This document shows, one piece after another, positions 2,114-2,466 of a DNA stretch of 64,000 nt; the stretch's first letter is position 1; every line of letters starts with the position of its first letter. Location: assembly GCF_055900595.2 (NCBI RefSeq), contig NZ_CM148325.1, one strand, 5' to 3'. The notes beneath the pieces were generated by a model that was not told the origin of the DNA, did no database searches, and worked only from the letters and a program-made list of their open reading frames with translations. Position numbers and translations under genes: made by a program.

Positions 2114-2466
2114 TCATCCCTGGCGCTGCCAGATAGCGTTTTCGTTCTTACAGTCAATGCGCACCCGATACTGAATATCGGCTTTATTCCCCCTGGCGGT
2201 GAGATGCGCTGTGACTAAATTATCACCTTTACTTACCAGCTCACGAAGATTCACCCAGACAACAGGACGCTGCTGACTGAGGAGCACCTAGTCATCTTTC
2301 CTGTGAAGCACCTGTTTCTGGAGATAGTTCCGTTTGACGCTGGCTGAAACAGCCGATGCTTCCTGCCCTTCACATCGTGGAAAACTGACGGTTCTTTTTT
2401 ATCAGCAGCCAGTGATGATGCACAGATACCGAAGATGAGCAGAATTGAAGAGAGTGTTTTGTTCAT
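2114..2466 (-). pseudogene. small secreted protein gene, apparently frameshifted
   Basis: 71-aa ORF with signal peptide (MNKTLSSILLIFGICASSLA) stops at 2251; a second frame continues ...LRELVSKGDNLVTAHLTARGNKADIQYRVRIDCKNENAIWQRQG to 2114; family not identified. Confidence 0.3.

Follow-up and report, generated by a model that had tools for sequence, protein, structure and literature searches.

In a stretch of DNA of 64,000 nucleotides (NCBI RefSeq assembly GCF_055900595.2, contig NZ_CM148325.1), here called the window, a short gene on the minus strand opens with an evident leader and then leaves its reading frame. The question raised by this locus is which family the gene belongs to, and whether it is dead, reversibly switched off or still read in some unusual way. 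The original prediction, made from the letters of the sequence alone, had described it as a frameshifted gene for a small secreted protein in a tract of decaying cargo, with its family not identified. According to the comparisons described below, the locus is very probably a pseudogene with two inactivating hits, derived from an accessory, island-borne paralogue of yebF, an ordinary case in a known family. The layout of the gene, with coordinates given in the window, is as follows.

2114..2466, minus strand: the whole yebF-family pseudogene, 353 nt as against 354 nt in intact relatives (from alignments)
2407..2466, minus strand: predicted Sec-type signal peptide MNKTLSSILLIFGICASSLA, codons 1–20, read from the sequence and aligning with the leader of intact paralogues
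2395..2400, minus strand: first lesion, a homopolymer A6 (T6 on the plus strand) that is one base short (from alignments and tblastn)
2372..2374, minus strand: codon for Cys32 in the repaired protein, the first of the conserved YebF cysteines (FPRCEG, compared with FPKCED in 2lqv)
2288..2290, minus strand: second lesion, the stop codon TAG at codon 60, where intact alleles carry CAG (Gln) (from alignments and frame translation)
2251..2253, minus strand: TGA closing the out-of-frame 71-aa ORF opened at ATG 2466 (frame read)
2150..2152, minus strand: codon of the second conserved cysteine, Cys106 (RIDCKN, compared with VDCKA in 2lqv)
2114..2287, minus strand: 57-aa ORF with a GTG start at 2287, which encodes the C-terminal half of the YebF domain (CDS WP_001354053.1 in RefSeq)
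2116..2114, minus strand: native stop TGA, which ends the frame of the 57-aa ORF

The ATG at 2466..2464 starts MNKTLSSILLIFGICASSLA, which is followed by AD. The leader, called a clear signal peptide in the original prediction, combines a basic n-region, a hydrophobic core of 14–16 residues and small residues at −3/−1 (S18, A20). Its n-, h- and c-regions are kept in the intact paralogues, and by the −3/−1 rule signal peptidase would be predicted to cut before A21 at an S-L-A/A site. The frame opened by this ATG stops, as had been noticed, at 2251 (TGA 2253..2251) after 71 codons, and a second frame goes on for about 45 codons past this point up to the TGA at 2116..2114. Residues 25–71 of the 71-aa ORF are out-of-frame nonsense; the product has no match to a Pfam or NCBIfam family and was not found in a collection of 15 billion proteins. 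A scan of 1900..2800 for promoters and terminators gave two promoter-like sites compared with 2.1 expected and three terminator-like sites, all on the wrong strand, and none of them is usable. If one base is put back in the A run and the TAG is read as Gln, the conceptual translation is a precursor of 117 aa.

This repaired translation identifies the family that had been left unnamed. Its score for Pfam PF13995 is 80.1 bits (cut-off 27) over profile positions 1–86 of 89, and it aligns with PDB chain 2lqv_A, which is YebF, at E=8.2e-21 (query 23–116, chain 5–97) with both cysteines in register. Among the NCBIfam models the best one is NF041240 (YebF_not_Cmi), a model built to exclude the colicin M immunity protein Cmi, although the repaired protein stays below the equivalog cut-offs of this model (94.0 vs 110) and of NF010224 (101.8 vs 147). 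The intact paralogue passes the former (116.2 vs 110) and fails the latter (122.5 vs 147). The amino acid identity to YebF of E. coli K-12 is about 43%, and at the DNA level the query did not match the core yebF in any of 5,426 complete E. coli genomes. A second yebF-like copy was not found in the window by tblastn, and the core yebF is absent from it as well. Since the equivalog scores lie under the cut-offs, the gene is best classified, on its sequence, as an island-borne paralogue in the YebF family and not as an equivalog of the core YebF.

YebF is a 10.8-kDa protein which is exported by the Sec system and then released to the medium, probably via a porin (PMC6302416), and the proposal of a small secreted protein agrees well with this family. 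The similarity to K-12 YebF (2LQV) comprises the same domain from end to end, the same length, aligned cysteines and an N-terminal signal peptide, the cleavability of which is predicted here. The difference is that the copy in the window is a pseudogene on an island beside ynjA and does not occupy the core yebF locus. [quoted passage not shown] Cmi shares the Pfam domain with both cysteines, but it has an N-terminal helix anchor and the colicin M gene next to it (PMC5821083), whereas the leader in the window looks cleavable. In the matching island, the 44 features annotated within ±20 kb include no colicin M gene, so that the gene neighbourhood typical of Cmi is not seen here.

The two lesions were called from alignments of the window with four, later six relatives together with frame-specific translations. 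Intact alleles read GAT/GAA AAA AAC AGA ACC at the tract, the window reads GAT AAAAAA GAACC, and downstream of the A6 the true frame lies at −1 with respect to the ATG, with the switch at 2396/2395. Using an intact 117-aa relative as query, tblastn placed residues 1–36 on 2466..2359 in one frame (E=3.4e-9) and residues 25–117 on 2395..2117 in a single other frame (E=3.9e-47). The frame is thus switched at residue 24/25, 48 codons upstream of the stop of the first frame. The frameshift assumed in the original prediction is real, though it is located in the A6 at 2400..2395 and not near 2251. What had been missed is the additional TAG at 2290..2288, which also occurs in the lineage of strains AR_0085 and PK8261, where it is flagged as 'internal stop' by RefSeq. 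The alignments indicate that both lesions are independent of each other, and owing to them the frame that starts with the signal peptide does not reach the native stop uninterrupted. A homology search tolerating frameshifts had been recommended, with the absence of any homologue across both frames as the result that would speak against a broken gene. Such homologues exist: intact relatives of 117 aa (P0001, P0002 and WP_045146775.1) span both frames with 81–84% identity, and the nearest full-length (117-aa) matches in a word-based protein search show 77–84% identity.

The allele of the window is not restricted to a single genome. Megablast against the 5,426 complete E. coli genomes matched the segment in 50 chromosomes, where the overlapping annotation is "YebF family protein". 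The window allele itself was found in 29 records of complete genomes of various hosts and countries, 28 of them with 100% identity over the gene and one with 99.7% at the same length; because several are re-deposits of one strain, they correspond to roughly 20 distinct assemblies. The combination of A6 and TAG is also present on two metagenome contigs. A plasmid origin was considered and rejected, as megablast of 2050..2560 gave no match among 72,556 plasmids. Altogether the paralogue family is present at 85 places in 51 of the 5,426 complete genomes (roughly 1%), with up to five copies in some genomes. Poultry isolates (chicken, chicken meat, black kite), obtained in several countries, are strongly over-represented among its carriers.

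Three types of relatives can be compared with the window allele. The intact paralogue WP_045146775.1 (L004; cluster P0002 with 149 members) has 78–84% amino acid identity along the full 117 residues and shares the signal peptide and a divergent upstream gene for an outer membrane protein (OMP), but differs by its whole ORF, the interrupted tract AAAAACA and CAG at codon 60. When the intact sequence was used as query, an intact copy annotated as "protein YebF" was found elsewhere in about 18 genomes. The AR_0085/PK8261 type, represented by 20 records with an allele of 94–95% (95.2% DNA identity), shares the TAG and most of the 3′ 200 nt with the window, but it has kept the in-frame AAAAACA and its start codon is changed from ATG to ATA. 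On one side it has a ROK regulator or IS3, on the other an AbgT transporter with an S6 autotransporter peptidase; the genes of the AbgT-family transporter and the S6 (SPATE) peptidase lie downstream of the pseudogene (L002:4154..8516, L003:4026..8442). As this island is unlike that of the window, the yebF-like gene has come to lie in no fewer than three different contexts.

The third type is that of strain Ch1, which shares the module and the synteny GT4 glycosyltransferase, deacetylase, OMP stub and yebF-like gene (95.2% over 2.4 kb). Over the first 150 nt its gene is identical to the window save for the tract length and one base, but it has no TAG, its tract shifts the frame by +1 (A8) or leaves it unchanged (A7), where that of the window gives −1, and its 3′ part resembles the intact type. 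Carriers of the A8 tract are Ch1, LH50-c and an ENA contig. For the latter (L006) a chimeric assembly was considered and, with respect to the tract, dropped, since A8 is present in the finished Ch1 genome; the 3′ end of this contig is window-like. In Ch1 the A8 allele (L011:3001..3355) is called as a 103-aa protein, WP_112038191.1, from an internal GTG. An in-frame A7 allele was predicted from this series and then found by an exact-sequence look-up as MGT5123053.1 on one draft contig (GCA_053261975.1). Its DNA equals the Ch1 gene save one A, and its A8 twin occurs on 48 contigs. At the A7 locus (L018:5001..5354) an IS2 is inserted about 330 bp upstream. A scan of metagenomes for the pattern yielded six loci, namely two intact, two with ATA and TAG, and two with A6 and TAG; none of the six has an A7 tract, and one of the A6 plus TAG loci (L013) is a diverged sub-variant. 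In the collection of species-representative genomes the tract pattern was not found. In a further allele, P0005 (126-aa call; L008:3001..3381, also L009 and L010), the frame is shifted at about codon 79 by the loss of a T from AAATAAA. This is an event of the same kind as in the window, and the locus is situated between the OMP gene and an afa/dra-type usher–AfaD fimbrial cluster.

In the alignment, columns 1–151 of the window gene match the Ch1 type with 0–1 differences, and the remaining roughly 200 nt match the TAG type. This mosaic pattern would imply at least one exchange between paralogous copies.

The tract series A5-C-A (intact and ATA plus TAG alleles), A6 (window), A7 (one contig) and A8 (Ch1) leads to the only rival explanation with real support, namely that the A tract is a reversible ON/OFF switch by slipped-strand phase variation and the window simply represents the OFF phase. 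A6, the in-frame A7 (P0008/L018) and A8 (Ch1, LH50-c, ENA contig) are indeed found on one 5′ haplotype, with no further DNA difference between the A7 and the A8 gene, which has to be counted against a pseudogene. However, the TAG at codon 60 prevents any change in tract length from restoring the protein of the window, and phase variation is therefore not applicable to this allele: its homopolymer varies among relatives, ON allele included, but the ORF around it is not otherwise intact as in a contingency gene. In addition, the tract length is constant among the 29 complete-genome records, and the diverged sub-variant L013 still has A6, which means that A6 remained stable while substitutions accrued. 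In the type without TAG the ratio of OFF to ON is 48 contigs to 1, and the single A7 record is a draft contig that could contain a homopolymer miscall. Moreover, tracts of 6–8 A in mismatch-repair-proficient E. coli slip far less than classical contingency loci. The ratio of 48:1 and the stability of A6 in the diverged sub-variant favour one-way decay, and an OFF phase in the window is very unlikely. A slim chance, somewhat better than that of the switch in the window itself, is left for the idea that the TAG-free A7/A8 tract of the Ch1 type is a genuine slipped-strand switch of a secreted protein in avian or other extra-intestinal E. coli; in this case the copy in the window would be a switch that had first become fixed in the OFF state and later acquired a disabling nonsense mutation.

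The annotation leads to another reading. In RefSeq (PGAP) only the 57-aa remnant after the TAG is annotated, as a normal 'YebF family protein' (WP_001354053.1) without a pseudogene flag, and one UniRef entry names it 'Lipoprotein'. That this tail appears as an ordinary CDS speaks, taken alone, against a pseudogene, and the ORF 2287..2114 might accordingly be a genuine small gene for a leaderless half YebF domain, since it is conserved on at least 1000 contigs and still reaches 44.6 bits against PF13995. On the other hand, only profile positions 39–86 of 89 are covered, and the ORF has neither the signal peptide nor the first of the two fold-typifying cysteines; the codon of Cys32 (2372..2374) falls into the stretch that is no longer translated in frame. 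The GTG start directly abuts the TAG of the ancestral frame, which marks the ORF as a leftover downstream of the nonsense mutation, and it is conserved because one allele has spread recently. Six nonsynonymous and one synonymous differences separate the window from the AR_0085 type within the 57 codons. A functional 57-aa gene is about as improbable as the switch in the window.

The substitutions in the whole gene point in the same direction as the lesions. By the method of Nei–Gojobori, dN/dS is 0.20 between the two intact alleles, consistent with purifying selection on the intact paralogue, 0.21–0.24 between each intact allele and the frameshifted P0005, and 0.3–0.4 when a broken allele is compared with an intact one. 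It rises to 2.1 between the two TAG-bearing lineages, with 14 nonsynonymous and two synonymous differences; the probability of at least 14 out of 16 is 1.4e-4 under an omega of 0.2 and 0.26 under neutrality. A relaxed constraint on the TAG-bearing copies is suggested by these 16 differences in a mosaic gene, which are indicative only, and because the counts are small and the gene is mosaic the contrast is supportive, not decisive. Lesions relative to intact homologues, signs of relaxed constraint and replication across independent genomes, that is all features expected of a pseudogene, were found together.

Two further possibilities concern the frameshift as such. Programmed −1 ribosomal frameshifting or transcriptional slippage on the A run might yield a full-length protein, as A runs are known slippery sequences and a shift on GAT AAA AAA G would restore the true frame. 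But this frame meets the TAG 35 codons further on and gives at best a 59-aa precursor without Cys106 and without more than half of the domain, so it does not stay open to a functional, conserved C-terminus and a full-length product is refuted. The A run is only six long, and because the intact relatives are encoded in a single frame with the interrupted run AAAAACA, frameshifting is not a trait of the family; this reading has very little probability left. Base-calling errors occur most often in homopolymers. Even so, an artefact of sequencing or assembly, the least probable of all readings, is excluded by the replication of A6 plus TAG in the 29 records (roughly 20 distinct assemblies) and in independent metagenome contigs.

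The surroundings of the pseudogene were described as a tract with decaying cargo, and this is borne out by the neighbouring genes.

1227..1616, plus strand: intact gene of the cytochrome b562 family, 129 aa, with its own signal peptide (WP_001354052.1)
2707..2822, plus strand: stub of an OMP beta-barrel gene, divergently transcribed, with a GTG start and an early stop or frameshift within the signal peptide
3315..4132, plus strand: polysaccharide deacetylase pseudogene with an internal stop near 3465 and a frameshift near 4065
4135..4467 and 4451..5065, plus strand: GT4 glycosyltransferase pseudogene in two frames, with about 50 residues missing
5161..5565, plus strand: fragment of an eptA/cptA-like phosphoethanolamine transferase gene, annotated as incomplete in matching islands
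5631..6848, minus strand: tyrosine recombinase at the island edge

Deacetylase and GT4 are both intact in Ch1 (L011:225..2152) and are marked 'frameshifted; internal stop' by RefSeq in the matching island of other strains. This pair (3315..5080) may resemble the shf/capU-type modules of Shigella and EAEC plasmids. The 249-aa OMP of L004 matches by tblastn only with residues 13–40 (28 codons) at 2739..2822 (75% identity, E=1.9e-8), and the start of the stub at 2707 is in another frame than this homology. An intact OMP gene stands divergently beside the yebF-like genes of L004 (intact copy) and L008 (frameshifted P0005). The stub stretch is collinear in Ch1, where no OMP gene is annotated between deacetylase and yebF-like gene, so the truncation of the OMP gene is probably older than the split between window and Ch1. 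In L003, L008 and L011, too, the yebF-like gene is flanked by phosphoethanolamine transferase genes or fragments; this points to an ancestral module of phosphoethanolamine transferase, OMP and yebF-like gene. Of the neighbours of the intact paralogue, dolP, EcsC, thioredoxin and DoxX left no remnants in positions 1..8000 of the window; only the OMP stub is there.

The island directly abuts, with the recombinase adjacent, the core gene ynjA (about 7006..7554). A tRNA-linked insertion site was considered and rejected, as ARAGORN detected no tRNA gene in the whole window and ynjA is located at the island edge. Fragments of IS5-family transposases are found within 1..930, and the cytochrome b562 gene is the only undamaged cargo between IS remnants and integrase. 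In strains ECCNB12-2 and SFE8 a 2.6-kb ISEc12 (IS21 family) is inserted at about 863..873, which the window does not have. From 863 to 12000 the identity between window and SFE8 is 97.7% (ungapped), and the yebF-like region is 100% identical.

Returning to the two-hit pseudogene, the ancestral gene would have encoded a precursor of 117 aa with a signal peptide of 20–21 residues and a YebF domain of roughly 96 residues including Cys32 and Cys106. Its decay most likely began with a C to A substitution that turned AAAAACA into a pure A7, still in frame, followed by replication slippage from A7 to A6 in the lineage of the window and to A8 in another one. The TAG probably arose separately in a lineage that also lost its start codon, and recombination between paralogues would then have joined the 5′ part with the A tract to the TAG-bearing 3′ part. 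In the resulting gene, translation from the ATG leaves the true frame at codons 24–25 due to the A6 at 2400..2395 and ends at the TGA 2253..2251, and TAG for CAG at codon 60 is the second inactivating hit. Because of both lesions no product with signal peptide and YebF domain is possible, so the locus presumably does nothing.

The locus of the window belongs to an already known family and is partly and somewhat misleadingly annotated. This small annotation error is worth correcting: the 57-aa CDS should be replaced by a pseudogene feature spanning 2114..2466. The biological weight of the finding is slight, as it adds one more decayed cargo gene to an eroding island. It concerns an accessory, island-borne YebF paralogue of E. 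coli, about 43% identical to the core YebF, which exists in roughly 1% of complete genomes and usually beside an OMP gene. Its allele series, from the intact AAAAACA to an in-frame A7 and further to A6 or A8, together with the TAG, the change of ATG to ATA and the loss of a T from AAATAAA, is a neat small example of a homopolymer that is created by a point substitution and subsequently slips, and of segment exchange between paralogous copies.
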